NCBI GenBank assembly: GCA_017524165.1
Contig: JAFWUH010000048.1
Location: 4,359 to 68,358 of the forward strand
Direction: 5' to 3'
From: Clostridia bacterium
Lineage (GTDB): Bacteria; Bacillota; Clostridia; Oscillospirales; Acutalibacteraceae
DNA: 64,000 bases
Positions 23,813 to 59,339 of this stretch are shown in pieces. Position numbers and translations under genes: made by a program. Positions within the stretch are counted from its first letter, which is position 1, and every line of letters starts with the position of its first letter. The notes beneath the pieces were generated by a model. It was given only the letters and a program-made list of their open reading frames with translations. It made no database searches and had not been told where the DNA came from.

Positions 23813-23834
23813 CGTTCTTCCTCCTATTAAAATT

Positions 23835-27578: not shown

Positions 27579-29651
27579 TTATTTTGTTTGCAAAAAAACA
27601 AATTGATGACCGTATAAAACGCCATCCGAAAAACCGCCGGAAGCGTAAGCCTTTTTAAATGCTGTGTTGACTTCATATTCATACGGTGTATGGTTAATGA
27701 TCAACATTCCGTTTTCAAACGGTATGCGTTCAATATTGCGCTCCACACCGTCCGAAAGCTTTAAATCCTCTGTGAACCATTTTTCAACCGGTGTACGACG
27801 AATCATGGTCAAGGGATACTGTGCCTGTCTGCCATAAGCCACCGGCACCGGCTTTTGGGCGCGTTCGCAATAGCATCGACCGAAATCAATGCCGGAGACA
27901 TAGACCTGTCCTTTGCCGATTTTCTTGCATCCGAGTGCCGTCAAACCGTCGCTGCAGTAAGGTGCAAGGGTCTCTACGCCTTTAAAACTCATAAAGCGTT
28001 CCGAAAACTCGGTCACTTCTTCTTCAAAGATAAAGGAATCCGATTTATGCGGCACCGCGGTAATTCCAAAGATTTCATGTAACCCGCAGGTCGCGCCTGC
28101 CAAAACCGTTCCGCCGTTTTCGACATAGTGTTTCAATGCCGTTTCCAACGAAGCATCGGGCAGGTAAGCATAGAACGGATCACTCGGCAGGACGATCAGT
28201 TGATAGTCTGCCAGCGTCTGTTCGCTAATCTGTGAACGATCCAAAATATCCGGGTTGATACCCAGATCTGCCAACTGCTGATAATGACCTAAAAGGTCGT
28301 TACGGCTGGCACGGAACAAGGCGTCATCTATACGACGGTTATCCATTGTAAAAGAGGCGTAAGGAAACACGATTGCCGCCTTTTTATCGGCAATACGCTT
28401 GCCGGAAACCTGACGAACCTCAGCAAACCAATCCAGTGCCTTTTTCACCGATTGCTTCCGGTTTTTCTCCCACTTGCCGAAATTGCCGCCGTCATCCAAA
28501 CCGCTGTAACCGTAGAAAAACATATCGGTTGCACCGGCGCCGTAACAGGAGGCAATGGACTCTGCCGGCGTGACATAAGCGTAAATATCATTGTATAAAT
28601 AGCGACCGAGGAAAAGTCCCGCAACCGGATCTTTTCCGTTACAGGCACTGCGTAAAATCGAGTTCTCGCAGGATACGGCATAGCAGTTTGCTTCCCCGTA
28701 AGCGTCGGCGGGCAGGGTGTAAAAAGAGGGCGAATCCAAATATTTTGCCAAACGCCACAAATCCAAGCCGCGCTCGCTGATCTCCACCCAGTCGGTCATA
28801 TAATACTTCCATTGTGACAGGCAGTCATATAAAAAGATTCCGGGCAGTTCTTTTCGCACCTGATCGGTGAGTTTTGCATAGAATTCTTCCATATAATCCT
28901 GTCGGAAAAGCATATTGTCGCGGTGCATCAGCATCCGCGGCGTCGGTTGGGCGGCTTTGTAATCCTCCGCCGTCATGACCGGCCAAAGATCGGTCATAGA
29001 CAACGCTTCAAAGCTTTCCGCCGTCCATCCGTAGGTTTGATTCAGCGCCCCAATCGTTTGATAGCGACACTGTAACCAATCCAGATATACCGCTTTCCCA
29101 TCTTCGTCAAAGGATGGGAAAATAGCGGGACTGTGATAAAAATAACAGGGAATCTTTTCGTTGCCGTTTTCATCGACGGCCTTCGCCGCCGCTTCTTTCG
29201 CCAATTTACGGTAAAGATTTACCGTGTGATCGGTCATGGCACGAATCTGTTCCTCATCCCACATACGGTAGCCGCGAAACGGCTTGCCGTCGCGATCGGT
29301 CACCGGACGAATAAAGTCGGGCGCGCTGTCGCGAATGTGCGGATAGAGGTTATCCCCGTTATAAAACAAGGTCAAGAAGTTGATACCCATGCCGTTTTCA
29401 GCACATTTTTCCACCATAAAGCGTTGCATGGCAACATAATCCGATTCTGTCCCGTTTTGGAAAAAGTCTGTAAAATCTTCCCACAGTTTGGAATCCAGAA
29501 TAATGGAATTGAAGCCCATGTCCGCAATCTCTTTCATGCCTTCGCAAACCAACTCCCGGTTGGAATGATAAGGTTCAAAAAAGTTGCCGAACCAAAGGGA
29601 AAAATGAGGTCTTTGTTTTCCTTCGGAACATTTTTCTTGACTGAAAAGCAT
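27579..29651 (-). CDS. Cytoplasmic GH42-like (clan GH-A TIM-barrel plus amidotransferase-like trimerisation-type domain) putative glycosidase
   Basis: No signal peptide. MKEIADMGFNSIILDSKLWEDF and YLDWLQCRYQTIGALNQTYGW resemble the GH42 N-terminal barrel. The C-terminal segment AAIVFPYASF...YQLIVLPSDPF...ENGGTVLAG resembles the GH42 middle domain. Family call is tentative. Confidence 0.5.
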   Translation of the reverse strand: MLFSQEKCSEGKQRPHFSLWFGNFFEPYHSNRELVCEGMKEIADMGFNSIILDSKLWEDFTDFFQNGTESDYVAMQRFMVEKCAENGMGINFLTLFYNGDNLYPHIRDSAPDFIRPVTDRDGKPFRGYRMWDEEQIRAMTDHTVNLYRKLAKEAAAKAVDENGNEKIPCYFYHSPAIFPSFDEDGKAVYLDWLQCRYQTIGALNQTYGWTAESFEALSMTDLWPVMTAEDYKAAQPTPRMLMHRDNMLFRQDYMEEFYAKLTDQVRKELPGIFLYDCLSQWKYYMTDWVEISERGLDLWRLAKYLDSPSFYTLPADAYGEANCYAVSCENSILRSACNGKDPVAGLFLGRYLYNDIYAYVTPAESIASCYGAGATDMFFYGYSGLDDGGNFGKWEKNRKQSVKKALDWFAEVRQVSGKRIADKKAAIVFPYASFTMDNRRIDDALFRASRNDLLGHYQQLADLGINPDILDRSQISEQTLADYQLIVLPSDPFYAYLPDASLETALKHYVENGGTVLAGATCGLHEIFGITAVPHKSDSFIFEEEVTEFSERFMSFKGVETLAPYCSDGLTALGCKKIGKGQVYVSGIDFGRCYCERAQKPVPVAYGRQAQYPLTMIRRTPVEKWFTEDLKLSDGVERNIERIPFENGMLIINHTPYEYEVNTAFKKAYASGGFSDGVLYGHQFVFLQTK

Positions 29652-29661
29652 AAGTATTACC

Positions 29662-32223
29662 TCACTTCAACAGTAATGTCTTGATCTCTTTCGGAGAGAA
29701 TTGAAGCGTAACGGTTTGTGCGGTTACCGCCATCGGGGCACCGGTCGCTTCTTCCAGCAAATTCGCTTCGCAAACCGTCGTCAATCCCTGCGGCAGACGC
29801 AGGGAAACGGCGTTTTCGGTCTCGCGCAAATTGTAAAGACGCAAAACGAGCTGATCGCTGTGATCCGCTTTCTTAAAAGCGGTATTCCAAACACCGCTGC
29901 CGTCGATCGAGAACAAGCCGTTTTCAAATGATCCGTCACAGACCTCCGGATGGCGGATCTGATGCGTATACAGATCCCCCGAAGCAAACTGCAATGCCGA
30001 AATTTCAAATTGCTCAAACTCATCGGCGGCGCCGACATAAATCTCATACGCCGCGGTATTTACACCCTTGCATTGTGCGTCAGGCGTCGGGAAATCGCCC
30101 CAGTCGCCTAACTGATCCACACAACGAAGCAGATTCAGGCAAAGCGTATTACTGCCGTCACGCAACACCTCATATTCATACAGCGCGCGTGTGCCGATCA
30201 ACAGGGAATCAGTACTTCCCTGCAATCCGACAAAGCTCTGTGCTCTTTGTTCGTTGGTCGGCCATTTCCACGCCGGACGGGTTGCAATCGTACGGCGCAC
30301 CACATCAAACTGACCGTGTGCCAAAACATCGGATGTGTCGATTTGATTACGGAAAATTGCTCTCAAACGGTGACACTCACTGGCGTTATCCATTTGAACC
30401 GAAACCGCGATTTTACGGCTGAATTTTGTCAGCGTAACCTCAGTTTTAATGCCAAACGGCACCTTCTTGTCACTGTAACAATTTTGTTTACGGTCGAAAC
30501 TTTCAGGCAAAAGCAATTCCTGCGCAATGCCGAAAGTGACGAAATCTTTACCGACATGTTCCACCGTGATCTCGGCTTTTTTGCCCTCGGTGGTCACGGC
30601 TTCACCGCCGTTGCCTTTATAGAGATACTCATCCCCGATATCGGCGGTGTCTTCATAAATATTCAAGCCGTCATAGACCTTGCCGGTCTTTTTATCGGTG
30701 ACGGTCAGACTGCCGTCCTCTTTGATTTGCAATGCAATCCATTCATTTTCGGCACCCTGTGCGGTATGCGCCATCTTTTCAAGATCGGCTTTCGGTACGG
30801 TTGCATAGTAAACACGGTAACCGAACGCCGGAACATCTTGCGCCGCAAAGCGGAAGATATAACGGTTGACATACTGCACCACGCGGAACGCATCATCCGG
30901 TAAAGTATAGGTAAAGGTATGCGGGAACACCTGCGGATTTTCAGCAACTGTATTGCCGTTTTCATCCACCAGGACCAAAGATTCACAACCGTCTTCTTCC
31001 GGCACATCGACCACCGCCGTCACGATATCGGAGCGGCAATAAGCCGTTTGGTTAAAGACAGCCACAGGATAACCGTTATCGGTCTTTACCGACAACTTCT
31101 GCGCTACAACAGCCACCGATTCATCAATCATGGAGGTAGCACCCTCAATGACTTCGCCGAAACGAGTCATCATATCGCTGTGCACGATATCAACGCTGCA
31201 CCCGCAAATTGAGTCATGCGCATGGTTTTCCAACAGGTGTTTCCAACTGAATTTCAGATAATCGGACGGATAGTCCGCACCGAACAGATACGCTGTCGCG
31301 CCAAACGGTTCGGCGAGGCGTTCTAAGGTGTTCTGTGCCGTCCAATTCTTTTGTTTTAAATAGATTCGGGAACTTGCGGTCGAAATCAACAAACTGATTC
31401 CCGCGGTATTTTGACCGGTCATTTCTTCCGCAACCACCGGATATTGATCCTGATTCTTCTTAATCTCGTTGATATAATCGGTCAAATTACTGTGAATGAA
31501 GCACACATTGTCATCGGTCACCGCGTTTAATGCTTGCAACGCTTCGCCGAGATCCAACTGAACCGGCTGATGGTCACTGCCGTTCATGCCGAGGTAGCAT
31601 CCGCCGCTTTTAGAAGCGTTACGGAAGGCACCCAACATTTTATCGGCGCGCGCTTTTGCCTCTTGCTCGTTGCAGGGAAGCTCAGCGGCATTATTGTACC
31701 ACGGTGTGAAATGACCGCCAACCACCCGACTGCCGTCGGGTGACTGCCAAATGATTTCCGCTGTGTTTTCTACCCCTCGGCCGAAAACAACAGCATCGAT
31801 CCCGCACTTCTTGAAAATTTGCGGCATCTGCGAAATATTACCAAAGCTGTCAGGAAGGTAGCCGATTTTCTGGACTTCTACCCCAAAATCGGCTCCTGTT
31901 TGCATCCCTAACACCATATTGCGGACATTGGCTTCATCACTGGTCAGAAATTCATCCTGTAACACATACCACGGTCCCACTTTGATCCTGCCGGCGTCGA
32001 TCAACCTTTTCAAGCGTTCCCACATATAGGGCTTGATCTTCAGGTAATCTTCCAGCACAATCATCTGTCCGTCGAGGTGATAAAACTTGTATTCCGGATC
32101 CTGTTCCATTTTCTCAATCAACGCATCCATCAATTTGATCAAACGGAAACGATGTTTTTCAAAAGACATATACCACTCTCGATCCCAATGGGAGTGCGGT
32201 ACAACATGGATAATTTCTTTCAT
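29662..32223 (-). CDS. GH38 alpha-mannosidase (MngB/SpGH38-like), cytoplasmic
   Basis: N-terminal metal-site motif VVPHSHWDREWY, then GPWYVLQDEF and LPDSFG. 853 aa, no signal peptide. Confidence 0.85.
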   Translation of the reverse strand: MKEIIHVVPHSHWDREWYMSFEKHRFRLIKLMDALIEKMEQDPEYKFYHLDGQMIVLEDYLKIKPYMWERLKRLIDAGRIKVGPWYVLQDEFLTSDEANVRNMVLGMQTGADFGVEVQKIGYLPDSFGNISQMPQIFKKCGIDAVVFGRGVENTAEIIWQSPDGSRVVGGHFTPWYNNAAELPCNEQEAKARADKMLGAFRNASKSGGCYLGMNGSDHQPVQLDLGEALQALNAVTDDNVCFIHSNLTDYINEIKKNQDQYPVVAEEMTGQNTAGISLLISTASSRIYLKQKNWTAQNTLERLAEPFGATAYLFGADYPSDYLKFSWKHLLENHAHDSICGCSVDIVHSDMMTRFGEVIEGATSMIDESVAVVAQKLSVKTDNGYPVAVFNQTAYCRSDIVTAVVDVPEEDGCESLVLVDENGNTVAENPQVFPHTFTYTLPDDAFRVVQYVNRYIFRFAAQDVPAFGYRVYYATVPKADLEKMAHTAQGAENEWIALQIKEDGSLTVTDKKTGKVYDGLNIYEDTADIGDEYLYKGNGGEAVTTEGKKAEITVEHVGKDFVTFGIAQELLLPESFDRKQNCYSDKKVPFGIKTEVTLTKFSRKIAVSVQMDNASECHRLRAIFRNQIDTSDVLAHGQFDVVRRTIATRPAWKWPTNEQRAQSFVGLQGSTDSLLIGTRALYEYEVLRDGSNTLCLNLLRCVDQLGDWGDFPTPDAQCKGVNTAAYEIYVGAADEFEQFEISALQFASGDLYTHQIRHPEVCDGSFENGLFSIDGSGVWNTAFKKADHSDQLVLRLYNLRETENAVSLRLPQGLTTVCEANLLEEATGAPMAVTAQTVTLQFSPKEIKTLLLK

Positions 32224-33718: not shown

Positions 33719-34660
33719 TTAACCGACGATACCGCTGCGTTCAATACCCTGAATCAGCTTGCGTTGGAAAATTAAGTAGAAGATGAAAATGGGCAGAATG
33801 ATCATGACGACCGCGGTATTCTGCATAACCGAGGACATCATAGTCCCGTTGGAAATCGACTCGGTCGCAATGGCGGTAACCTTGTTCAGGATCATCGGCA
33901 ACACCGTCATACTGCGGTTAAACAGTCCCGAGTAGAAGGTATCTGTCCATTGCCATGCAAACGAAAGCAAGAATACCGAAATCAACATAGATTTCGACAG
34001 CGGAATCATAATTTCAAAGAATGCACGAATGGGATTACATCCGTCCACCCAAGCCGCCTCGTTTAATTCCTGCGGTACACCCTTAAAGAACTGACGGAAA
34101 ACAAAGATGTATAAACCGTTTTTCAGTCCCAAAGCGGTCGCCGAAAGAATGGTCGAGGGCAAAATGGTCTCCACAAACTTCACTTTGCCAACGCCCAGCA
34201 GTCCCAGGATACCGAAAATATCAAAATAGCGGAACTTCATGTACATTGCAAGATAAAGCGTTTGCGGCGGAATAACGATGGTAAACACCGACATCAAAAA
34301 GAAGAAGTTTCTGCCGCGGAATTTAAACTTTGCAAAACCGTATCCGACCATACAGCAGGTAAAGGTCTGCAAGGTGGCGCACAGCGTCGAGATCAACAAA
34401 GAGTTGCCGAACGCCGGCAAATAACCGCCGTATTTAAAGACGCGTTTGACATTGTCCAGCGTCGGATTCAACGGAACCATCCATACGGTTGGATTCTGCA
34501 AATCAGACGGGCTCATAAACATAGCGGATATTTTTTGCAGGAAGGGCGAAATAATGACATAGCAAAGTCCCAACAACAGGATAAATCTGAAAATTGCCCA
34601 AACGATTTCGGATATGGCGGGCAGTTTTAACGCTCGTTGTTTTGGATTCTTTTTTTTCAA
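33719..34660 (-). CDS. Carbohydrate ABC transporter permease (MalG-like)
   Basis: EAA loop NEAAWVDGCNPIRAFFEIMIPLSKS, six hydrophobic segments. Start moved to TTG 34660 (AAGGGGG SD, 8-nt spacer), which removes a 47-nt overlap with the upstream gene. Confidence 0.85.
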   Translation of the reverse strand: MKKKNPKQRALKLPAISEIVWAIFRFILLLGLCYVIISPFLQKISAMFMSPSDLQNPTVWMVPLNPTLDNVKRVFKYGGYLPAFGNSLLISTLCATLQTFTCCMVGYGFAKFKFRGRNFFFLMSVFTIVIPPQTLYLAMYMKFRYFDIFGILGLLGVGKVKFVETILPSTILSATALGLKNGLYIFVFRQFFKGVPQELNEAAWVDGCNPIRAFFEIMIPLSKSMLISVFLLSFAWQWTDTFYSGLFNRSMTVLPMILNKVTAIATESISNGTMMSSVMQNTAVVMIILPIFIFYLIFQRKLIQGIERSGIVG

Positions 34661-34673
34661 ACTGCTCACCCCC

Positions 34674-35612
34674 TTAATCTCTTTCCTGATAGAAGGTAAA
34701 GCGATAGCAAATAAATGCAACCACCCCTAAAATCACCATAACCAAAGCAAGATAGAGCCATGCCATTGCCGAGGACGCACTGTAATTCATTTTACTGAAC
34801 GCCACATCGTCGATCAACGCCATGATTTGGTTATCCGAGCGTGTAAATCCGTCAATTACCGTGTAGATAATGTTGACTAAAATGATCGGGCTTAACAGCG
34901 GAACGGTGATCTTCCAGAAAGATTCCCAACCGTTGGCGCCCTCTACCCGGGCAGACTCGTAAACCGCGGGCGAAATGCCCTGCAAGCCGGAGAGGAACAG
35001 AATGATCTGTACGCCCGAATAGTTTACCACACTGTAAATGTTGTTGACTAAATTGACGATATAATCGACCGCTTCGGTCGGGATGTACATCTCTTGCAGC
35101 ATGATTTTGACATTGGAAATATCAAAGCCGCCTGCCGTTAATGTGGCGCCTGTTTCAATACCGGCGGCACTGCCCATGCTCTCCAAAACGGCGTTGGACA
35201 TATCGGCCTTCAAGACAATACCGGTCGCCATAACAACAGGCAGGAAGAAGATGGCACGGAACAGTCCGCGCGCCGGCATTTTTTGGTTTAAAATAACGGC
35301 AATAAACAGACTGAAAATAATAATCGCAGGGCTTTGTAACAACAGGTTGCCCACCAGAGAGACCGTGTCCCGCACGAAAGTAGCATGGGTGAAAAGCGCG
35401 TATTTGTAACTGGAAAGTCCGACAAAGCTCAACTCATATCCGCTGTTGCCAAGCTTAATATCATTCAAACTGAACCAGAATGAATTGGCAATGATCGAAA
35501 CATAAATCAGCAAGAAACCAATCACAAACGGAGCAATGAAAAACCAGCCGTACAACCCGTTTTTACGGGTTAATGCGCCTTCTTTTATTTTCTTTTTTGC
35601 ATCTTTTTTCAT
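34674..35612 (-). CDS. Carbohydrate ABC transporter permease (MalF-like)
   Basis: EAA loop YESARVEGANGWESFWKITVPLLSP, multi-TM. ATGA overlap with the upstream gene. Confidence 0.85.
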   Translation of the reverse strand: MKKDAKKKIKEGALTRKNGLYGWFFIAPFVIGFLLIYVSIIANSFWFSLNDIKLGNSGYELSFVGLSSYKYALFTHATFVRDTVSLVGNLLLQSPAIIIFSLFIAVILNQKMPARGLFRAIFFLPVVMATGIVLKADMSNAVLESMGSAAGIETGATLTAGGFDISNVKIMLQEMYIPTEAVDYIVNLVNNIYSVVNYSGVQIILFLSGLQGISPAVYESARVEGANGWESFWKITVPLLSPIILVNIIYTVIDGFTRSDNQIMALIDDVAFSKMNYSASSAMAWLYLALVMVILGVVAFICYRFTFYQERD

Positions 35613-38200
35613 TGCGCACTCCCCCGTTCTGCACGATAGTAACCGTTAGCCGGTACCGTTATTCCATCCGCTTCAATATCGGTTGCGTTATAATTGACAT
35701 AAACAGCCGTTGACGAAGCATAAACGGTTTTGAAAACGCCGTCTGCGACCTGACTGTGGTCAATGATCGGTTCCGCGGCAAGATCGCCGACCGCCTTTTG
35801 CACTTCCTGATAACATTCGACGATACGATCCTTCCATGTACCGTAATCGACCGAATACGCATTGGCAAAATCGGTAGATTTTAAGATCTCGGCATTTTCA
35901 TAAGCAAGTTCAAAGTAAAGTCCCGAACCATTTTCGATGGCTTTCAGCACCTCGGCGCGATAATTGCCCGAAAGATTCACTGCCTTGGTAGTATAATGAA
36001 CCTTTCCGTGCAAGACCATCGGTAAAAACGGAATCGCATAATCCGCGTCGGTGTAGCCGCTTGCGCTTAACGGTAGGTCGATAATTTGCGCAGCCGATTC
36101 ATAACAGTAACGGTTGCCGCCGTCTACCATCAAGCGGTACTCTTTCGACGCACTGCTCAAAACCTCTTGGGCATAGCGCTGTGCGATATCACGATTGACG
36201 CCGTTTTTCGCGTTTTTGTTACTGTTCAGATTGTTGCCCATGGTCGACAGGGACAATCCCTTGATACCGAGTTTCTGATAAGAAGTATCAAACTTCTTGA
36301 AGAATTGCAGCATCACTTCCGGGCGAAGCGCATATTTGAACGCCTTGCCGTTGACCAAGCCGGAACTGAAACGAATTTTCGTAAATCCGGCATAGGTTTT
36401 ATCCAGCATTCTGCCGGTATCTCCGGAAGCATTAAAGGCATCGAACATACCGTTACTACCGACATAAACCATATCGGCATCCATGTATAGTCCGATATTC
36501 TTTTCCTCCAATTGTTTGTTCAGCTTTTTCAGCGCTGATTTTCCGCCCAACGCCTTTTGAACCGAAGCGTCGGTATAGGCGCGTCCGGCAAGACCGTTCT
36601 TCGACCAGCCAATGTACCGCAAATCCAGCGCTTCAACGCCTTTTTCGGTCATTTCATCCGAGATAATACCGGCATCCTTAAAGGTGGTCAACGGAATCTG
36701 CCGTTTTACCGGCACAAACAGGATCTGATCCTGATAACGAACCGTGCCGTATAATCCCAACACCAACCGTAATGCCGCGTCATCCGTCTCTTTCAGGTTC
36801 AAGCTGTCACGGTAATATGCCGCCATTTGCGGATAACCCGCACCTGCATCCAAAAGCGCATACCGTATGCGGTAGGTTCCTTCGTAGCGGGATTTTTCAG
36901 AAAGTGTCCAGGAATATTTGGTATTGACATCCTTGTATTCAAAGCTGTCATAATCACTGTAGGCAAAGGATACGCCGACACGGGCATAACAGCTGGTGTT
37001 GCCGCCGGAGCTCACCACGATATCACCCATGGCTGCACCGTCTTCCACGATAGCAAACAAGCTGCCGGAAGGCGATACCATACCGAAAACAGGGATGGTC
37101 GCCGTCATTAATTTTTCGTAGCCGGCGTTATAGGATAATGCCCGGTCATAACCGTAAATCGGAATACGGACATCATTGCCGAGTTTGGTTCCCTGACTGT
37201 TGAAGCCAATCACAGCACCGCTGCCGTCGGGTACGACCGCATATCCGTCCTGCGTGCAGTCCGCCGCCGCAAAGTACTCCAATATACCGATTTCAAGTAA
37301 TTGGAAATGGCTGTCGTCATACTTGATTAAAGAGGTCGGAACGCTGACAGATAGCTCGCCGTTACTTAATTCGTATCGCACGCTGATTTCAAAGCGCGGA
37401 TTGACGCTTTCAGTTTCGGAAGCGCCGACCGTTTTTAAGTCGCGATCCATATCGTCAAAGGTATATCCGCCTTCGGCTAAATAGCCCTCCAACTCCGCCA
37501 TTTCGTTTTCGGTGACCTGCTTTAACACATAAATCGGCATTTCATCAATGACAGGGAATTTTTCCCGAATCAATTCAATTTGATTTTCAGGTGTTTTCTC
37601 GGCGTCATACAATTTGTAAAATGCCTTCATTCTGGTCTGTTGACGCTTGGAAAGTTGTTCGAGGACTTTATCAAAGCTATCCGTCGGCATGGCGGCAGGT
37701 AAAAGCGTACGCTGTTCCGCACGACCGATCACCATGTCGACCTGAACCCCGTTCTCCAGCCGTTTCAAGGTGTATTGACCTTTCGCAATACACTCGTTAA
37801 AGCTGAAGATCTCCGCAATATTTTGCTGTGCGTTCATATAGGTCAAGTGCAATTGAGAAGCAATTTTTACTTTTTGCGTCTCCACCGATTTGCTGTCTGC
37901 AGCCAGATTCCACGGTGTGGAGAAATACAAACCGCTGTCGGATTGCAAAGCAATATCGCAGGTAGCCGGGTCAAAATACAATCGGTTTTTGCCGTCAGCG
38001 GCGACTTCGGTCATCTGTGACAACCGTTGCTCAGCCGATTCATAAGCGGTAATGGACGATGCAAAACTGTCAACCTTCCACTCCTTGCCGTCGTTGTTCG
38101 CAAACGGTTCATAGGATATTTTGAGCTGTGCCGCTGACGAACAACCGCAAAGGAAAACCGCAATGAGAAGGAATGCAGTTATTATTCGAATTTTTTTCAT
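35609..38200 (-). CDS. 863-aa lipoprotein, DUF5696-like (uncharacterised, possibly glycosidase-like)
   Basis: Lipobox MKKIRIITAFLLIAVFLCGCSS and GGGGGAG SD. Segments VVPDGSGAVIGF and AIPFLPMVLHGKVHY recall the DUF5696 family. This is from memory, not verified. Confidence 0.55.
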   Translation of the reverse strand: MKKIRIITAFLLIAVFLCGCSSAAQLKISYEPFANNDGKEWKVDSFASSITAYESAEQRLSQMTEVAADGKNRLYFDPATCDIALQSDSGLYFSTPWNLAADSKSVETQKVKIASQLHLTYMNAQQNIAEIFSFNECIAKGQYTLKRLENGVQVDMVIGRAEQRTLLPAAMPTDSFDKVLEQLSKRQQTRMKAFYKLYDAEKTPENQIELIREKFPVIDEMPIYVLKQVTENEMAELEGYLAEGGYTFDDMDRDLKTVGASETESVNPRFEISVRYELSNGELSVSVPTSLIKYDDSHFQLLEIGILEYFAAADCTQDGYAVVPDGSGAVIGFNSQGTKLGNDVRIPIYGYDRALSYNAGYEKLMTATIPVFGMVSPSGSLFAIVEDGAAMGDIVVSSGGNTSCYARVGVSFAYSDYDSFEYKDVNTKYSWTLSEKSRYEGTYRIRYALLDAGAGYPQMAAYYRDSLNLKETDDAALRLVLGLYGTVRYQDQILFVPVKRQIPLTTFKDAGIISDEMTEKGVEALDLRYIGWSKNGLAGRAYTDASVQKALGGKSALKKLNKQLEEKNIGLYMDADMVYVGSNGMFDAFNASGDTGRMLDKTYAGFTKIRFSSGLVNGKAFKYALRPEVMLQFFKKFDTSYQKLGIKGLSLSTMGNNLNSNKNAKNGVNRDIAQRYAQEVLSSASKEYRLMVDGGNRYCYESAAQIIDLPLSASGYTDADYAIPFLPMVLHGKVHYTTKAVNLSGNYRAEVLKAIENGSGLYFELAYENAEILKSTDFANAYSVDYGTWKDRIVECYQEVQKAVGDLAAEPIIDHSQVADGVFKTVYASSTAVYVNYNATDIEADGITVPANGYYRAERGSAQ

Positions 38201-38217
38201 GTTGCACTCCCCCTACT

Positions 38218-40383
38218 CTATAGTCTGAATGTAATTTCGTTGTAAATGTTGCTGAACATGGATATCATTTGACCGATCAAGTTGACAAACAACATCATTA
38301 AGAAGACAATGATGATCATGCCAACCAGGGTCAATGCCACGGTGATCACATTCGTGCCGAATTGATAGTCGTGTGTGGAAAGAACGGCACAGAATAACAG
38401 GAACGCCGCCCACAAATAACCTACCGTAAAGAAAAAGTTCACAAACATCAATTCGTTATGTGTTACAAAGTTACTGAGTATCGTGGCAGGGATCGTGAAG
38501 AAGACGATCGGCATCAATGCGTAGCAAGAGGCAATATAAATATCCTTCAAACCGCCTTCGCCGTACATCAAGCTGGTTAAGCACCAGTTGGAAATGCACC
38601 AGATTGCCACAACGCCCAGGATCACAACCAAAGTCAAAAATAAATTGGAATCATTTTCCGGTTGACCGGTATAAATATAACCCAGTCCGACTGTACGGAA
38701 CAACAGCGAAACAATCACCAAAGCAAGAATCGTGTTTGCGCCGCGAATACTGCCGCGTTTGGATCGCTTTAATTCCCAGAAGCCGTCAAACGGATGGAAA
38801 ATCACATGGAATACATACATAAACTCCTGTGCAAAGGTGCGTTTGGCATCCCGTTGCATCGGTGTTTTTTTATTGAATTTATTTGCAAACTTAAAGAATG
38901 AGCTGACACCGAAGCAGATCAACACGATTACGATCGGGATCAATAAGATCCAGTTGCCCAAAAGCTGCCGACGGTATTCGGAATAAGCCAAAGAGTAGTT
39001 TTCCACATCGTTGGCAAGCTTGTAGTAATACATGGCTTCCTTGTACTTGCCTTGACGCACCATTGCGGTACCGATGCCGACATTGGCAAGGTCAAAGTTT
39101 GCGTTTTCTAAGAGGATTTGCTCATAAACGGGAACTACTTCCTCGTATTTCCGGTTATCAGACAACCGAATGGCTTCCTGTACCAGACTGCCGTAGCCGG
39201 TCGGAGAGAAGACCGTGATTTTTCCGGAGTTGGCGTCTAATGCAATCAGATTTTTTTCGGCGTCATATTCTACTGCGGCAAGTTGACGGAAGGTACCCAT
39301 TTGGTATCCCGAGCCGCCAAAAGCATAGAGCAGATTGCCGTTACTGTCATAGGTAAACAGCTTTCCGCGCTTCTGATCGGCAAGCGTATAAACCCCGTTG
39401 GGTCCGACCGCGACATCCACGATGCTGGACGGACCGTAAAAAATGTCGGTGTTGGTAGCATTTCCGTCGGTCGATAATGAAATTTCAACATCACCGGCAG
39501 GCGGATAGGCACCGCCGCGCACCAAAACATCTTTACCGCTGGAATTCAATTTTTTGATCATCGCATAGCGGTTATCGGTACTTCTGGAAGCAATGGTTTG
39601 AACGACCGCATTAATATTGGAATAGGTCGCTGTTACATATAAAAATCCTTTTTCATCAATGGTGATGTTGTTGTAGTTCGTCGGAACATAACTTAAGGTA
39701 CGCTTTTTCTGTTCTTTGGTCAAAAATTTACGCCAAAGTTTATCAATGACCGAAACCGTAACCTTCTGTGCACCGATAAAGGTGGAGAAATTTCCTTTGT
39801 CATCTAAAGCAACCACACCGTAGGTATTACCGGCTGAAACAATATAAACTCTGCCGGCACGGTCGACCGAAATCTTGATCGGAATATAGGAAAAATCCTC
39901 CGGCAACAGACTGGATTCCGGCTTTTTGATCACGCGGACACAGGTCAAATCCTTGGAAAAAACATAAATGTTGATGCCGGTCGAATCGGCAACATAAAGC
40001 GTGTCATCCTCGGTCATAAACAGTCCCGTCGGACGGGTCAACGCATAATCGACGCCGTCCAAAGAAAATTGTGTAAGCACACGGACCGAAGACAAATCTT
40101 TACTGATCACGACAACCCTTGCATTACCGGTATCGGCAACATAGATATTGCCTTCACTGTCTAAACAAAGGTCTTCCGCCGATGTAAATTGATTCAGCCC
40201 GAAGTCCCCCGCGGCAATCACCTTATTCGGCGTGTAGGCATGCGGTGATTCCACCGGATCGCCGTCAAAATTATAGACATAGGTCGAATAAGGAACATTA
40301 TCCGAAGCAGAGGCCGTTAAGGTCAATGACAGAATGAATGTCAAAGCCAAAATAAATGCTGAAAGTTTTTTGATGATTTTCAC
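38218..40383 (-). CDS. Membrane protein: signal peptide, NHL-repeat beta-propeller, TPR-like segment, C-terminal Yip1-type multi-TM domain
   Basis: GTG start. NHL-like blades GNIYVADTGNARVVVI, TLYVADSTGINIYVF, GRVYIVSAGNTYGVVALD, GFLYVTAT, GVYTLADQKRGKLFTYD, NLIALDANSGKITVF. TPR-like MVRQGKYKEAMYYYKLA. One TM (aa 478-497) then about 5 TM segments in aa 520-721. Confidence 0.7.
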   Translation of the reverse strand: MKIIKKLSAFILALTFILSLTLTASASDNVPYSTYVYNFDGDPVESPHAYTPNKVIAAGDFGLNQFTSAEDLCLDSEGNIYVADTGNARVVVISKDLSSVRVLTQFSLDGVDYALTRPTGLFMTEDDTLYVADSTGINIYVFSKDLTCVRVIKKPESSLLPEDFSYIPIKISVDRAGRVYIVSAGNTYGVVALDDKGNFSTFIGAQKVTVSVIDKLWRKFLTKEQKKRTLSYVPTNYNNITIDEKGFLYVTATYSNINAVVQTIASRSTDNRYAMIKKLNSSGKDVLVRGGAYPPAGDVEISLSTDGNATNTDIFYGPSSIVDVAVGPNGVYTLADQKRGKLFTYDSNGNLLYAFGGSGYQMGTFRQLAAVEYDAEKNLIALDANSGKITVFSPTGYGSLVQEAIRLSDNRKYEEVVPVYEQILLENANFDLANVGIGTAMVRQGKYKEAMYYYKLANDVENYSLAYSEYRRQLLGNWILLIPIVIVLICFGVSSFFKFANKFNKKTPMQRDAKRTFAQEFMYVFHVIFHPFDGFWELKRSKRGSIRGANTILALVIVSLLFRTVGLGYIYTGQPENDSNLFLTLVVILGVVAIWCISNWCLTSLMYGEGGLKDIYIASCYALMPIVFFTIPATILSNFVTHNELMFVNFFFTVGYLWAAFLLFCAVLSTHDYQFGTNVITVALTLVGMIIIVFLMMLFVNLIGQMISMFSNIYNEITFRL

Positions 40384-40405: not shown

Positions 40406-41272
40406 CTAATCTTTCATGCCCGAAGTAGCGAGTGTTTCCACGATCTGAGATTGCGTAAATACGAACAAAATGATCGGTACCATCATCATCAAGACCGTCG
40501 CCGCCGCAGAAGCGCCCACACGGGTAACACCGCCTGCCAAAACCTGATGCAACGCATAGTTCAACGGTTTCAAATCCTCACGGTAAATATAGTTGGTATC
40601 GCTTAAATTCCACAGTCCCTGGAAAGAGAATATAATCAAGGTCAACCATGCGGGGCGAACCATCGGCATAACAATGGTGAAAAAGATGCGATATTCATTT
40701 GCACCCTCGATTCGTGCCGCTTCCAAAATACCGTCGGGAACCATTTGCTCGACGAACTGTTTCATCAAATACAGTCCCAAGGAAGAACCGAATGCCGGCA
40801 CCACCAACGCCGCCAACGAATCGATCCATCCGATTTTCGACATGATAATAAAGTTCGGAATAGCCGTAACGGTGGTATTGAACATTAAGGAAAGGACAAC
40901 CAAATTGAAAATGAAGTTTTTCCCGCGGAATTTGAATTTACAAATTGCATAGGCGCACATGGAAGACAAAACCACATGACCGCCGGTACCGACAATCGAC
41001 ACAAACAAGGTATTGCCGACATAGCGGGAAAACGGAATCAACGAGTCATCCAAAATGGAAAACAAATCTTTAAAGTTTTTAAAGGTGGGATTTGCCGCAA
41101 AAAAGCGCGGCGGGTAAACCCATAATTCATCGGCCGGTTTTAACGAAGTGGAAATGGCGTAAATCATCGGCAACGCCATAAAAGAGCCGAAGAGGAAGAG
41201 AAACAGCGCAATGCAGATATCTCCGCCCAAAGAACGGTTTAAACGGTGAGTATGTAATTTCATTTTTTTCAT
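40406..41272 (-). CDS. Carbohydrate ABC transporter permease (MalG-like)
   Basis: EAA loop LEAARIEGANEYRIFFTIVMPMVRP, multi-TM. Confidence 0.85.
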   Translation of the reverse strand: MKKMKLHTHRLNRSLGGDICIALFLFLFGSFMALPMIYAISTSLKPADELWVYPPRFFAANPTFKNFKDLFSILDDSLIPFSRYVGNTLFVSIVGTGGHVVLSSMCAYAICKFKFRGKNFIFNLVVLSLMFNTTVTAIPNFIIMSKIGWIDSLAALVVPAFGSSLGLYLMKQFVEQMVPDGILEAARIEGANEYRIFFTIVMPMVRPAWLTLIIFSFQGLWNLSDTNYIYREDLKPLNYALHQVLAGGVTRVGASAAATVLMMMVPIILFVFTQSQIVETLATSGMKD

Positions 41273-41273
41273 C

Positions 41274-42170
41274 TTACGAACCCACCTTTGAAATAATTTT
41301 ACGAATAACCATGTTGCTTAATACCATGATGATAAACAGCACGGTTGCAATGGCGGAAGCATAACCCAATTCGTATTTGGTATTACCGTAATCCTGCAAG
41401 TGGTTGAGGATGGTATGCGCCGCATAGTTGGTGGACGGGAATCCGCACAACTGCGTGACAATGGTGCCGACGCCGAACGCCGCGGTAATACTCAAAACCG
41501 CACTCAAGAGCATCTGCGGACGCATAAGCGGCATCGTCACATACCAAAGCTCCTGCCAACGGTTGGTCACACCGTCAATAGCGCTGGCTTCGTAATAGGA
41601 TTTATCGACGCCTTGGAAACCGGCGATAAAGGTCAGAAAGCTGGTTCCCAAGCTACTCCATAAGGAAACGATGGCGACGATGGTCAAAATATACTTTTCA
41701 TCCTTCAACCAAATAATCGGACTGGAGATAAAGCCCATATTCATCAGGAAACCGTTCAAATAACCGTAGGCGTCACCGCTGAATACAGCTCTCCAAACCA
41801 GGTACATGTTACCCGAAATAGACGGCGCATAGAAAATCAAGGTGACAATGGCTCTGCCTACGGGTTTTAACTCGTTGATAAACCACGCAAACAAAAGGCA
41901 AAGCAGATAACCGATCGGTCCTGTTATCAATGCCAGAATAAAGGTATTGCCGATAGATTTAATAAAGATATCATCCTGCAAGAACAAGCGCGTATAGTTG
42001 GATAATCCGATAAATCCGGGCATTTCCAACATATTGAAGTCGGTAAAACTCAATAAAATCGAAATCAAAACCGGCAGAACGGTAAAGACACAAAAAATGG
42101 AAAAATACGGCAAAACAAAGGTCCACGCAACAATGCCGTGATGATTAAATTTGCTTTTATTTTTACGCAT
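41274..42170 (-). CDS. Carbohydrate ABC transporter permease (MalF-like)
   Basis: EAA loop YEASAIDGVTNRWQELWYVTMPLMRP, multi-TM. AAGGAG SD. Confidence 0.85.
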   Translation of the reverse strand: MRKNKSKFNHHGIVAWTFVLPYFSIFCVFTVLPVLISILLSFTDFNMLEMPGFIGLSNYTRLFLQDDIFIKSIGNTFILALITGPIGYLLCLLFAWFINELKPVGRAIVTLIFYAPSISGNMYLVWRAVFSGDAYGYLNGFLMNMGFISSPIIWLKDEKYILTIVAIVSLWSSLGTSFLTFIAGFQGVDKSYYEASAIDGVTNRWQELWYVTMPLMRPQMLLSAVLSITAAFGVGTIVTQLCGFPSTNYAAHTILNHLQDYGNTKYELGYASAIATVLFIIMVLSNMVIRKIISKVGS

Positions 42171-45083: not shown

Positions 45084-45144
45084 TTGATATTATTTTTTTA
45101 TTATGCAAATAAAGTATACCATGTTTCAATAAAAATTTCAACAT

Positions 45145-45331: not shown

Positions 45332-46417
45332 ATGCCTTATACCGGAAAAAAACTCGCCATCGTGCAAACATATCTTTTAGATTATATTCGCGCCCATTCA
45401 TTGACTGTCGGCGCTAAACTTCCTACCGAGAAAGAAATGATGGAACATACCGGCGTCAGCCGAGTCACGCTTCGCCGTTCGTTGGCAAATATGCAGGATG
45501 AAAAACTGATTTACAGTGTTCAAGGTTCCGGCTACTTTGTCGGTGACGGTTGCGATGCGTTGCGCGTCGATACCATCCCGTTGATCATTTCCTATAATCA
45601 TGAAAACTCAAAAATCCTGAACATTGTTCATGGGGCACAATCCTATCTGGAAAAGCACCATTGTCAATTGGATCTTCGCATTTCCAAGAAAAATTCCGAA
45701 ATTGAGAAGCAGACGCTCGAACAGCTTTATCAGGAAGGGTACCGCTGTGCGATCGTTTTTCCGGTTTCCAGTGAAGAAAATGCGGACTTTTACTTTGAGA
45801 TGATACAAAAGGGGATGCACCTTGTCTTTATTGACCGTAAACCGAAAGGACTTTCCTGCTGTAATCTGGTAACTTGCGATAACATGACCGGCGGATACCT
45901 TGCAACAAAACACTTGATCGAACAAGGACACCGCAACATTGTTGCTTTCGGCTTAGAACCGTTGGAACATATCTCCGCCGTTTCGGAACGGTATGCCGGT
46001 TATCGCCGCGCTCTGAAAGAACACGGTATACCCGAACCGCCAAAAAGTTATTACTACGCACAATACCGTAAATATAATGAAGATATTGAAGCAATTCTGA
46101 ATCCTGAAAACAGGATCACCGCTGTGTTTGCCATCAATGATCATGCAGCGGTTGATATTGCCACGCACGCCTACGAACACGGTCTGAAGGTGCCCGACAG
46201 CTTAGCTGTTATCGGTTTTGATAACCTCGATATCACAGCAGTTTTTTCTCCGCATCTTTCGACCATTGACCAACCATTTACGCAATTAGGTGAAGTTTCG
46301 GCGAAGCTTGCCTACAAAATTTTGACCCATGCCGTTCAGGGATTTACCCAACGCGTGTTACCCGTTAAATTGATTATCCGTGAGTCAACACAGAGAAAAT
46401 TTTCGCTTTTCCGTTAA
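45332..46417 (+). CDS. AraR-like transcriptional regulator: GntR-type winged HTH fused to a LacI/PBP1-type sugar-binding domain
   Basis: N-terminus LPTEKEMMEHTGVSRVTLRRSLANMQDEKLIYSVQGSGYFV (GntR wHTH). C-terminal part AVFAINDHAAVDIATHA...LAVIGFDN (LacI-family effector domain). Divergent from operon A. Confidence 0.8.
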   Translation: MPYTGKKLAIVQTYLLDYIRAHSLTVGAKLPTEKEMMEHTGVSRVTLRRSLANMQDEKLIYSVQGSGYFVGDGCDALRVDTIPLIISYNHENSKILNIVHGAQSYLEKHHCQLDLRISKKNSEIEKQTLEQLYQEGYRCAIVFPVSSEENADFYFEMIQKGMHLVFIDRKPKGLSCCNLVTCDNMTGGYLATKHLIEQGHRNIVAFGLEPLEHISAVSERYAGYRRALKEHGIPEPPKSYYYAQYRKYNEDIEAILNPENRITAVFAINDHAAVDIATHAYEHGLKVPDSLAVIGFDNLDITAVFSPHLSTIDQPFTQLGEVSAKLAYKILTHAVQGFTQRVLPVKLIIRESTQRKFSLFR

Positions 46418-59301: not shown

Positions 59302-59339
59302 CTTTTCGTCCTCCATGCCCAACGAATTTTGTTTTATAA

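Follow-up and report, generated by a model that had tools for sequence, protein, structure and literature searches.

An NHL-TPR-Yip1 membrane protein and a DUF5696 protein as candidate subunits of a conserved twin ABC glycan-uptake cassette in Bacillota

Introduction

Glycan uptake by the Gram-positive bacteria of the gut and rumen is usually pictured as the work of a lipoprotein solute-binding protein (SBP) and one permease pair. Permeases of this type dock the ABC ATPase through a conserved motif, the EAA loop, and shared orphan ATPases are usual in the CUT1 importer family. Among the Bacteroidota, Sus-like surface complexes bring together glycan-binding proteins and a glycosidase around a dedicated importer, all encoded in one locus. 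A Yip1-family protein, YknW, has furthermore been described as a component of YknWXYZ, where it modulates the assembly of its ABC transporter (PMC4887032).

The locus described here was analysed within a window of 64,000 nucleotides (the whole stretch of DNA under analysis). With the CUT1 importers MalEFGK2, MsmEFGK and RafEFG, and with Gram-positive polysaccharide-utilisation loci, it has in common an SBP_bac_1 protein, F-type and G-type BPD_transp_1 permeases with EAA loops, an ATPase usually encoded elsewhere and shared, a sugar-responsive regulator and glycoside hydrolases encoded nearby. Unlike these importers, the cassette combines two permease pairs in one fixed unit, an SBP of ~960 amino acids with two CBM35-like modules, a coiled coil and usually no lipid anchor, and two obligatory extra components, an NHL-TPR-Yip1 membrane protein and a DUF5696 protein, encoded between the permease pairs.

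The likeness to YknWXYZ is that of a shared Pfam family, both systems encoding a bacterial Yip1-family multi-TM protein together with an ABC transporter; YknYZ, however, is not a type I importer but an exporter of the MacB type that includes a membrane-fusion protein (MFP), and an NHL or TPR ectodomain of YknW is not mentioned in its description (PMC4887032). A four-component transporter of the YknWXYZ type was considered for the cassette and rejected, as its permeases belong to the BPD_transp_1 importer type and it contains neither an MFP nor a MacB gene. The Mycobacterium tuberculosis kinase PknD (1rwi/1rwl) likewise carries an extracellular six-bladed NHL propeller on a TM anchor, but couples it to a cytoplasmic kinase, whereas in the cassette protein the propeller is joined to TPR repeats and a Yip1 bundle and no output domain is known. 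Sus-like complexes represent a functional analogy only: the cassette has unrelated components without SusC/SusD, belongs to monoderm bacteria and relies on ABC import. A literature search retrieved no paper that mentions DUF5696 or PF18952, connects any Yip1 protein to sugar uptake, or describes a role for the NHL-TPR-Yip1/DUF5696 pair, in agreement with the first-pass annotation of this DNA, which knew of no established role in sugar uptake for either architecture.

Results

Organization of the locus

The cassette comprises seven genes in the fixed order large SBP, permease A, permease B, NHL-TPR-Yip1, DUF5696, permease C and permease D (Table 1). The two central ORFs were found where they had initially been placed on the minus strand, with the DUF5696 ORF 17 nt downstream of its neighbor. 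As both are long and give highly significant family matches, they are not chance features. The ATG of the DUF5696 gene is preceded by a strong Shine-Dalgarno sequence (GGGGGAG) and its stop overlaps the permease C gene by 4 nt, while the true start of permease D is probably a GTG near position 34669. The large SBP gene has an AT-rich leader and a TAGGAGG ribosome-binding site. A promoter-like element, TTGAAA-17-TATACT with an upstream TG (10/12 matches; consensus match only), is located in the AT-rich divergent intergenic region common to this gene and a regulator gene transcribed divergently from the cassette. The GH38 and GH42-like genes follow on the cassette strand with gaps of 10-22 nt and are specific to the locus in the window.

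Table 1. Features of the cassette and its flanks; positions are those of the window
Feature	Position	Strand	Evidence or remarks
GH42-like protein	27579-29651	-	downstream of GH38 gene
GH38 alpha-mannosidase without signal peptide	29662-32223	-	downstream of small SBP
Small SBP lipoprotein, 474 aa	32246..33670	-	weak SBP_bac_1 match; optional eighth cassette gene
Permease D, 333 aa as listed	33719..34720	-	G-type subunit of translocon 2; EAAWVDG at residue 221
Permease C, 312 aa	34674..35612	-	F-type subunit of translocon 2; ESARVEG at residue 219
DUF5696 protein, 863 aa, lipobox Cys20	35609..38200	-	Pfam DUF5696; model; Foldseek; profile matches
Codon AAC (N661), LNS(D) motif	36218..36220	-	candidate equivalent of GH129 catalytic Asp
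NHL-TPR-TM-Yip1 membrane protein, 721 aa, GTG start	38218..40383	-	Pfam; AF2 model; Foldseek; family profile; hydropathy
Yip1-type five-TM domain, residues 546-721	38221..38748	-	Pfam; model; hydropathy
TM helix 1 (479-506) and basic cytoplasmic linker (507-545)	38749..38949	-	linker holds HPFDGFWELKR
TPR-like helical repeats, extracytoplasmic, residues 396-475	38959..39198	-	model helices; family profile
Six-bladed NHL beta-propeller, extracytoplasmic, residues 30-395	39199..40296	-	Pfam; AF2 model; Foldseek
Signal peptide, residues 1-26	40306-40383	-	
Permease B, 288 aa	40406..41272	-	BPD_transp_1; MalG/G-type subunit of translocon 1; EAARIEG at residue 184
Permease A, 298 aa	41274..42170	-	BPD_transp_1; MalF/F-type subunit of translocon 1; EASAIDG at residue 194
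Large SBP, 959 aa	42183..45062	-	signal peptide; two CBM35-like modules; coiled coil; CUT1-type SBP domain
Promoter-like -35/-10 elements 5' of large SBP gene	45100..45141	-	consensus match only
Regulator, GntR-type HTH and LacI-like sugar-binding domain	45332..46417	+	GntR 8e-13; Peripla_BP_3 6e-30

Conservation of the cassette

With the HPFDGFWELKR motif as search pattern, a scan of species-representative genomes gave at least 590 matches, for 80 of which the locus was fetched: 62 were complete, 18 were cut by contig ends and none had a broken order. Absence of a conserved co-occurrence from other genomes had been set beforehand as what would refute the proposal; this was clearly not borne out, gene order and strand proving identical in 80/80 loci, at 37-57% identity. 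Among the homologues checked, the most distant DUF5696 matches (23-25% identity) and the most distant Yip1 matches lie in the same cassette, and searches begun with DUF5696, or with only the Yip1 domain, lead to it as well. It occurs in hundreds of Gram-positive bacteria from gut, rumen and soil, including Oscillospiraceae, Lachnospiraceae, Anaerotaenia and Bacillus; isolates that carry it are found in Butyrivibrio and Paenibacillus, together with Bacillus sp. FJAT-28004. The initial description of the pair as inserted between two importers is thus correct as regards the permease pairs on both sides, but not as regards an insertion, since permeases C and D belong to the cassette.

The flanks are less uniform. 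Flanking CAZymes vary between lineages, the neighbors in most loci are housekeeping genes rather than CAZymes, and the regulators at other loci are of the LacI, AraC, ROK or two-component type. Mirror-tree partial correlations, a signal that is confounded by gene adjacency and does not link the NHL and Yip1 halves to each other, were 0.57 [0.43-0.65] for NHL/Yip1-DUF5696, 0.40 for NHL/Yip1-SBP and 0.29 for NHL/Yip1-permC. Similar values were obtained for known partners (permA-permB: 0.50; permC-permD: 0.59; SBP-permB: 0.43).

Permeases and solute-binding proteins

All four permeases contain a BPD_transp_1 domain and an EAA motif of the pattern E-A/S-A-x-x-D/E-G, and the cassette therefore encodes two complete translocons. 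Permease C shares 25% identity with permease A, and permease D shares 25% with permease B. No ABC ATPase gene of the MsmK/MalK/UgpC type was found in the cassette or elsewhere in the window; in P. cellulosilyticus a ugpC-like gene is located directly upstream.

The CBM-fused SBP of the first-pass annotation was confirmed by Pfam and structure-profile matches. Two CBM35-like modules (residues ~60-390; CITase CBM35, 5x7g: 1.3e-6) are followed by a coiled coil (~446-506) and a CUT1-type SBP domain (~555-860), for which Pfam reports SBP_bac_1 over residues 572-858 (3.2e-22) and which matches CUT1 SBP structures, the best being Lin1841 (5ysb; 3.5e-13). Among 38 homologues, CBM_35 was found in 17 and Golvesin_C in 25. 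By heuristic calls, a C-terminal TM helix is absent from all 68 large SBPs examined, and a lipobox-like motif is present in at most 12/72. The small SBP of the window is orthologous to the small SBPs adjoining the cassette in loci L081, L085, L086, L088 and L089. Within the fetched flanks, a small SBP was found in only 5/80 loci, and translocon 2 has no adjoining SBP in most loci.

The NHL-TPR-Yip1 protein

The NHL, TPR and Yip1 domains initially assigned to the 721-aa product were borne out by Pfam, Foldseek and the family profile. Pfam detects NHL repeats (43 bits; cut-off 20) and Yip1 (PF04893; residues 525-695; 46.4 bits; cut-off 28.6). In the AF2 model (pLDDT 83.6) the propeller resembles six-bladed NHL domains (Foldseek target TM-scores 0.77-0.83), including that of TRIM71 (0.80), with the PknD sensor domain also among the structural matches. 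The family profile of the protein matches Pizza6, TRIM71 and PknD and, at residues 403-455, consensus TPR proteins. Hydropathy indicates a signal peptide and six TM segments, five of which, by model and hydropathy, form the Yip1 region (residues 546-720) after the basic linker. This linker is the best-conserved stretch of the protein, with 41% of its columns at least 90% conserved; the NHL, TPR and Yip1 regions reach 20-23%, and TM1 11%. In Lachnospiraceae and Paenibacillus the Yip1 domain is encoded by a separate, overlapping gene; the break is invariably located after TM1, and both genes remain side by side.

The DUF5696 protein

The 863-aa product matches DUF5696 over residues 259-854 (E=2e-155), a family of ~6,500 clusters at 50% identity and the fastest-evolving component of the cassette, with large insertions. 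Its designation as a lipoprotein holds for the clade of the window, where a lipobox is present (L17-C18-G19-C20), but not for the family: by heuristic calls on 150 representatives, a signal peptide lacking a lipobox is present in 139 and a lipobox in nine, a C-terminal TM helix is absent from all, and some signal peptides may act as uncleaved anchors. No SLH, LysM or SH3 wall-binding domain was found, long variants included.

Pfam gave no cross-hit to a glycoside hydrolase model, and the protein had initially been regarded as lacking an assignable catalytic family. The fold can nonetheless be assigned: the structural model (pLDDT 86.3; pTM 0.83) and the profile matches predict a GH129/GH101/GH36-like (beta/alpha)8 glycosidase fold. 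The best matches of the model are GH129, GH101 and GH36 glycosidases, with E values from 6e-29 to 1e-24 at only 11-14% identity (5opq: 6e-29, target TM-score 0.65-0.67; 5wzp: 9e-25; 5wzn: 2.6e-24, target TM-score 0.71), and the family profile matches GH129 NagBb (4.7e-6) and DagB (2e-4) over part of the protein. The N-terminal part (residues ~39-450) forms a split beta-sandwich that carries a helical insert, the (beta/alpha)8 barrel spans residues ~475-807, and residues 812-857 make up a C-terminal beta-sandwich. The sandwich-barrel-sandwich arrangement is common to GH101, GH36 and the GH129 or GH129-like enzymes NagBb (alpha-N-acetylgalactosaminidase; 5wzn) and DagB/ZGAL_3152 (3,6-anhydro-D-galactosidase; 5opq), and DUF5696 has invariant Asp residues in its N-domain, as D202 in DagB. 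Unlike the GH129 enzymes, DUF5696 has additional sequence at its N-terminus as well as a helical insert, is extracellular and is tied to a transporter cassette.

By approximate interpolation from the profile alignments, the catalytic D486 of DagB (D435 of NagBb) would fall within residues 638-672 of the protein in the window. Position 661 in this range is Asp in 143/150 representatives and is replaced in ~5%, including the isolate Bacillus sp. FJAT-28004 and the window, where it is Asn. Other polar residues are as strongly conserved (D325: 149; D352: 149; R670: 147; N696: 149; H731: 148; N742: 150, each of 150). No conserved acid/base residue was found among the 150 representatives, position 693 being variable. 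Since N661 replaces a 95%-conserved Asp, the putatively lipid-anchored protein of the window may, judging by its sequence, bind its substrate rather than cleave it.

Discussion

We consider it about an even chance (roughly 0.5) that the NHL-TPR-Yip1 and DUF5696 proteins belong to a conserved "twin" CUT1-type ABC machine for glycan uptake in the Bacillota, as integral subunits that are not themselves transporters. We infer that the former is a membrane organiser that holds the GH129-like enzyme and the CBM-bearing SBP at the two ABC translocons. Anchored through TM1 and the Yip1 bundle, its NHL-TPR ectodomain would tether the unanchored DUF5696 enzyme and SBP to the cell surface, while the Yip1 domain and the conserved cytoplasmic HPFDGFW linker would dock the assembly to the translocons, especially to permeases C and D. 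Glycan captured by the CBM35 modules may then be cleaved or trimmed by DUF5696 beside the membrane, and the products would enter through the two translocons, A/B being served by the large SBP and C/D by the small SBP where present, with energy from an MsmK/UgpC-type ATPase encoded elsewhere. A surface complex, as first proposed, is plausible in view of the missing anchors and the co-evolution.

An ordinary co-regulated polysaccharide-utilisation operon without a physical complex appears rather unlikely. DUF5696 would here be secreted and act as an exo- or endo-glycosidase on a single common plant glycan, such as galactose-decorated arabinogalactan or galactomannan, with the importers taking up the products and the NHL-TPR-Yip1 protein playing a separate, minor role. 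The GH129-like fold and the conserved polar residues of DUF5696, the CBM35-like modules on the SBP and the recurrence of GH43, GH35, GH51, GH42-like and mannan-degrading enzymes beside the cassette all fit such an operon, and the small SBPs orthologous across lineages, together with the conserved DUF5696 residues, suggest one substrate class. Left unexplained are the rigid position of NHL/Yip1 between the permease pairs at every locus, the strong conservation of its cytoplasmic linker and the retention of unanchored proteins at a monoderm surface; moreover, most loci are adjoined by housekeeping genes and not by CAZymes. The linker conservation, the likeness of the propeller to the extracellular NHL sensor domain of PknD and the modulation of transporter assembly by YknW (PMC4887032) could instead point to a sensor or gate, in which the propeller detects glycan or loaded SBP and the Yip1 bundle relays this to the HPFDGFW motif, modulating the shared ABC ATPase or the translocons. 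We hold this to be improbable, as the protein lacks a recognisable output domain (kinase, GGDEF or HTH), a dedicated regulator is already present at this locus and regulators occur at others, and DUF5696, rather than any permease, shows the strongest co-evolutionary link to it.

It is also distinctly improbable that DUF5696 does not act on the nutrient, but either serves for binding or structure without catalysis or remodels the cell's own wall polymers and so opens a path to the translocons for large oligosaccharides. In its favor, the core residues are the same despite neighboring CAZymes for beta-mannan, possibly beta-glucan, arabinan/arabinogalactan and alpha-mannosides, some members, the window and an isolate among them, naturally carry another residue in place of the candidate nucleophile, and no conserved acid/base residue was found. 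The 95% conservation of D661 and the many near-invariant polar residues of the barrel loops are, however, as expected of an active enzyme, the fast evolution and large insertions fit adaptation to varying substrates, and none of the wall-binding domains named above was found. A coincidental adjacency of two unrelated ABC importers flanking two unrelated genes draws on the frequent clustering of sugar ABC operons and on nothing further, and is effectively refuted by the identical order and strand in all loci, distant Bacilli and Lachnospiraceae included.

Beyond the twin uptake machine, the cassette might tentatively represent a previously unrecognised glycan-import supercomplex, very widespread in Gram-positive bacteria. 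Here the Yip1-anchored NHL/TPR scaffold would be a new class of ABC-importer subunit, physically coupling a GH129-like surface enzyme of a new GH family and a CBM-bearing SBP to two translocons. The second of these would receive its substrate straight from the enzyme-scaffold unit in place of a classical SBP, and the whole would be a monoderm counterpart of Sus-like machines.

The cassette is very common, and with its two translocons, oversized CBM-bearing SBP and two additional proteins it departs from the usual picture of Gram-positive glycan uptake. Should the role proposed for these proteins be correct, DUF5696 would join a glycosidase superfamily and be a candidate for a new GH family, a second functional setting would be known for bacterial Yip1 domains, and the cassette would offer a tractable model of how monoderm bacteria retain enzymes and binding proteins at their importers.

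Conservation of the cassette

Our analysis shows the NHL-TPR-Yip1 (NHL-Yip1) and DUF5696 proteins to be obligatory parts of a sugar-uptake cassette that is very widespread and has twin translocons; in it, they are encoded together with a large solute-binding protein (SBP) and four permeases. A profile scan for NHL-Yip1 across one genome per GTDB species gave at least 600 matching stretches and at least 590 confirmed relatives, from which 80 loci were kept and their six-frame ORFs searched with the window proteins. The order large SBP-permA-permB-NHL-Yip1-DUF5696-permC-permD and the strand were identical in 80/80 of these loci (62 complete, 18 cut by a contig end yet consistent, none with a broken order), at an identity to the window protein of only 37-57%. 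The gene-neighbourhood survey proposed in the first-pass annotation thus bears out the co-occurrence in every locus kept. The same cassette surrounds the most distant DUF5696 matches (homologues P0153 and P0150; 23-25% identity), and stand-alone Yip1 proteins of ~206 amino acids, retrieved with the Yip1 part alone as query, also lie within it. It was furthermore found in the annotated isolate Butyrivibrio fibrisolvens D1 (pNP243) and in Paenibacillus cellulosilyticus (27% identity), where a ugpC-like ATPase gene is located directly upstream; in annotated isolates the cassette genes bear generic names only. As this order is conserved across loci, distant homologues and isolates, the second permease pair belongs to the unit, and the earlier view that NHL-Yip1 and DUF5696 lie between two importers, the second being a neighbour, was not upheld.

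In the window, the genes of the cassette run on the minus strand with gaps of -4 to 48 nt, bar a nominal overlap at permD. For the latter gene, a GTG at ~34669, 4 nt past the permC stop, is a more likely start than the listed TTG. A GntR/LacI-type regulator gene is transcribed divergently from the cassette, and promoter-like hexamers and an AT-rich leader are located upstream of the large SBP gene. An Rfam search of the window found no RNA family, and no convincing intergenic terminator was found within the operon. The window DUF5696 protein has a 100% identical counterpart, P0121 (locus tag IKI29_03905), from its source, a Clostridia metagenome-assembled genome, while the exact NHL-Yip1 sequence is not in a collection of 5.8 billion proteins, where the best match is 75% identical; the source annotation probably gave this gene another start or left it uncalled.

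Coordinates of the cassette and of other features in the window
Feature	Position	Strand	Remark
1548-aa ORF	5181-9827	minus	no Pfam match at E<=1e-4
Dockerin-bearing protein	21854-23872	minus	type I dockerin domain, E=2.8e-6; ~170-aa repeat
Other proteins with the ~170-aa repeat	46491-52655, 52671-53501, 60894-63992	minus	
GH38 and RHGA-like genes	23835-27557, 53520-56327, 56338-59322, 29662-32223	minus	
Small SBP, 474 aa	32246-33670	minus	followed by a GH38 gene and a GH42-like gene
Permease D	33719-34720	minus	listed start TTG, overlapping permC by 47 nt
Permease C	34674-35612	minus	
DUF5696, 863 aa	35609-38200	minus	17-nt gap to the upstream 721-aa gene
Codon 661 of DUF5696	36218-36220		AAC (Asn)
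NHL-Yip1, 721 aa	38218-40383	minus	start codon GTG
Point equivalent to the NHL-TPR/Yip1 gene split	38749-38949		
Permease B	40406-41272	minus	
Permease A	41274-42170	minus	
Large SBP, 959 aa	42183-45062	minus	

Genomic context and the small solute-binding protein

The immediate neighbours of the cassette in the 80 loci, which are mostly of the Oscillospiraceae type, are mostly housekeeping genes, with class-V aminotransferase (IscS-like), MnmA, ROK and VanY genes upstream and AlaRS, CPSase and other genes downstream, often on the opposite strand. Clustering of the genes flanking these loci found no conserved flanking gene. Outside the 80, the cassette sits in CAZyme loci whose content differs: GH5, two GH26, GDSL esterase and GH2 genes (beta-mannan type) in Paenibacillus (loci L085 and L087), GH16 and GH3 in Butyrivibrio sp. 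MC2013 (L088), and GH43, in some cases with GH35 or GH51, in Lachnospiraceae and others (L081, L086, L089 and L083). The window encodes a GH42-like protein, two SASA esterases and one dockerin protein, together with an unusual combination of two GH38 alpha-mannosidases and two large RHGA/pectate-lyase-like beta-helix proteins around the cassette.

Bacillus sp. FJAT-28004, the window and the CAZyme-locus lineages have a small SBP of 450-500 amino acids next to the cassette, its gene lying upstream of the large SBP gene in some and following that of permease D in others (loci L020, L067, L081, L083 and L085-L089). Across lineages, most of these small SBPs are orthologs, with 43-73% identity within the Lachnospiraceae and 22-26% to that of the window. 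In retrieved flanking sequence of at most 10 kb, the gene was found in only 5/80 Oscillospiraceae-type loci; its absence from the flanks of the remaining 75 leaves the second translocon there without an obvious binding protein.

Several window proteins also carry a ~170-aa repeat module that has no Pfam match, with motifs that read roughly DC..GW, NYFRFY and DNMxFT. At least seven copies are present in a 2054-aa SASA-esterase surface protein, one each in the dockerin-bearing protein and in the second SASA protein, and a 276-aa protein consists of one copy and a C-terminal transmembrane (TM) anchor. The repeat may represent a type of carbohydrate-binding or display module not described so far. 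The dockerin suggests that the organism has cellulosome-type surface assemblies alongside the ABC-centred cassette.

Transport components and membrane anchoring

The N-terminal 550 residues of the large SBP contain two CBM35-like modules. Among its homologues, Pfam CBM_35 was matched in 17/38 and Golvesin_C in 25/38, while the large SBP profile matches the CITase CBM35 (5x7g; 1.3e-6). A coiled-coil-like segment follows these modules, and the C-terminal part is a CUT1-type SBP, nearest to Lin1841 and RafE-type proteins. EAA motifs are present in all four cassette permeases, and permeases A and C are alike, as are B and D, at ~25% identity, indicating two complete but old and distinct translocons. 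No ATPase gene is found in the cassette.

In a monoderm cell, a binding protein normally requires an anchor. By heuristic signal-peptide and anchor calls, the signal peptides of most large SBP and DUF5696 homologues end in A-x-A-like sites, without a lipobox. A loose lipobox motif was called in at most 12/72 large SBPs and in 3/78 DUF5696 ORFs of the loci, a stricter motif in 9/150 DUF5696 cluster representatives, and a C-terminal TM helix in 0/68, 0/69 and 0/150, respectively. NHL-TPR-Yip1 is the only obligatory cassette protein that joins a protein-binding ectodomain (propeller and TPR) to a membrane anchor.

The NHL-TPR-Yip1 protein

The first-pass annotation had read the pair as a membrane protein with an NHL propeller, a TPR-like segment and a Yip1 domain, followed by a DUF5696-like lipoprotein, and every element of this description was recovered (Pfam, AF2 model, Foldseek, family profile, lipobox). 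Both Pfam NHL and Yip1 score above their cut-offs in the 721-aa protein, and its AF2 model (pLDDT 83.6) comprises a signal peptide, a propeller (residues 30-395), helical repeats (396-475), a TM helix (481-506), a basic linker and five more TM helices. Foldseek matched the model to six-bladed NHL propellers, the PknD sensor among them, and the family profile matches consensus TPR proteins over residues 403-455. Conservation is greatest in the cytoplasmic linker harboring the HPFDGFWELKR motif, where 41% of the columns are at least 90% conserved; the figure is 20-23% for the NHL, TPR and Yip1 regions and drops to 11% for TM1.

NHL-TPR and Yip1 are encoded by two genes, most of them overlapping, in Lachnospiraceae, Butyrivibrio, Anaerotaenia, Paenibacillus and some other contigs, including one metagenomic (loci L072, L081, L084 and L085-L089). 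At these loci the NHL-TPR product, of ~500 amino acids, is a type-I membrane protein that retains the TM anchor, while the Yip1 gene product (~206 aa) begins at the HPFDGFW motif (HVIFHPFDGFWDLK). The split thus points to two modules that remain together.

Fold and candidate active site of DUF5696

Pfam assigns the 863-aa protein, which carries a lipobox (L-C-G-C20), to DUF5696 (E=2e-155). In its AF2 model, built on 22 homologues (pLDDT 86.3, pTM 0.83), a (beta/alpha)8 barrel stands between a C-terminal beta-sandwich and a split N-terminal one that bears a helical insert; as modelled, the protein shows a GH129-type glycosidase fold. Foldseek comparison against the PDB recovered the GH129-like DagB/ZGAL_3152 (5opq; E=6e-29), the GH129 enzyme NagBb (5wzp/5wzn; E about 1e-24), GH101 endo-alpha-GalNAc-ases (about 1e-15), FpGalactosaminidase (about 3e-15), GH36 alpha-galactosidases (about 1e-12) and GH31 (about 6e-11). 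Sequence profiles agree only partly with the fold: the whole-family profile matches DagB (E=2e-4), and a catalytic-region profile of 38 sequences matches NagBb (E=4.7e-6) over the sandwich end and barrel strands 1-3. A Pfam scan of 22 members at E-values up to 10 gave no glycoside-hydrolase-related cross-hit, and the long variants (1,300-2,000 aa) contain no further Pfam domain, and hence no substrate clue. DUF5696 shares the fold type of GH129, yet is not filed here as a member because its catalytic features are so far only candidates.

Among 1.84 billion cluster representatives, a profile search for the family matched 6,547 at E<=1e-3, of which 3,987 reached E<=1e-30. A set of 71 DUF5696 proteins was aligned with hmmalign. 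The near-invariant polar residues among the best 150 representatives (window numbering) are D325 (149), D352 (149), D661 (143), R670 (147), N696 (149), H731 (148), N742 (150) and E756 (148). They are retained in the mannan, GH16/GH3 and GH43 contexts alike. In DagB, the N-domain aspartate D202, D486 and E517 are essential, and D486, corresponding to D435 of NagBb, is the sole one of these common to NagBb (PMC5698469). The DUF5696/GH129 profile alignments end before the catalytic strands, and by interpolation between the blocks that do align, D486 would fall within window residues 638-672, a range that includes D661 of the LNSD motif. From the sequence, we infer that position 661 is the leading candidate for the place of the catalytic aspartate of GH129. 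D693 was considered as acid/base and dropped, the position being variable, and no conserved acid/base residue was found among the 150 representatives. The window protein has asparagine at position 661, where its close homologues all have aspartate; asparagine occurs in 4/150 representatives and also in Bacillus sp. FJAT-28004. With N661, the window copy may lack catalytic activity; this residue could also stem from a variant of the assembly or consensus.

Co-evolution of the cassette proteins

Mirror-tree comparison was based on the distance matrices of the seven proteins from 57 loci and the window, with partial correlations and with intervals obtained by resampling 70% of the taxa repeatedly; the values are inflated by gene adjacency and shared history. 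Known partners gave 0.50 (permA-permB), 0.59 (permC-permD) and 0.43 (SBP-permB). NHL-Yip1 correlated with DUF5696 at 0.57 (0.43-0.65), with the SBP at 0.40 (0.28-0.48) and with permC at 0.29 (0.19-0.37), while SBP-permC (-0.19) had an interval spanning zero and SBP-permD (-0.04) showed no link. Splitting by domain gave 0.48 for the NHL/TPR ectodomain with DUF5696 and recovered no link between the two halves of NHL-Yip1, marking the method as a weak one. Among the cassette proteins, DUF5696 evolves fastest and PermA/B slowest.

Proposed function and alternatives

We suggest, at a probability of about 0.5 for the picture as a whole, that NHL-TPR-Yip1 organises the machine. It would hold the unanchored enzyme and the CBM-bearing SBP at the membrane, with Yip1 and the cytoplasmic linker making its contacts to the translocons. 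The glycan would be captured by the CBM35 modules and processed by DUF5696, with the products entering by permeases A/B, served by the large SBP, and by C/D, for which the small SBP would serve where there is one. Among Yip1 proteins that act as ABC-transporter subunits, the nearest precedent is YknW, which modulates assembly of the YknXYZ exporter (PMC4887032); the cassette is, however, not a YknWXYZ-type system.

Adjacency by coincidence is effectively excluded, as the conservation survey counts against it. A less likely reading than the one above is an ordinary operon whose products form no physical complex. NHL-Yip1 could alternatively serve as a sensor or gate, and DUF5696 could be non-catalytic or directed at the cell wall. 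With regard to substrate, the orthologous small SBPs and the invariant DUF5696 core argue for one substrate class; the variation in neighbouring CAZymes speaks for a platform of more general use. A substrate-agnostic platform, prompted by these differing contexts, was weakened by the orthology of the small SBPs across lineages.

The components are already catalogued as protein families (extracellular solute-binding protein, YIP1 family protein and DUF5696). Within the full-text library searched, no paper was found to mention DUF5696 or PF18952, and none to tie a Yip1 protein to sugar uptake. We class the cassette as a CUT1 ABC importer, or Gram-positive PUL, in which the translocon is doubled and obligatory subunits of a new kind are present.
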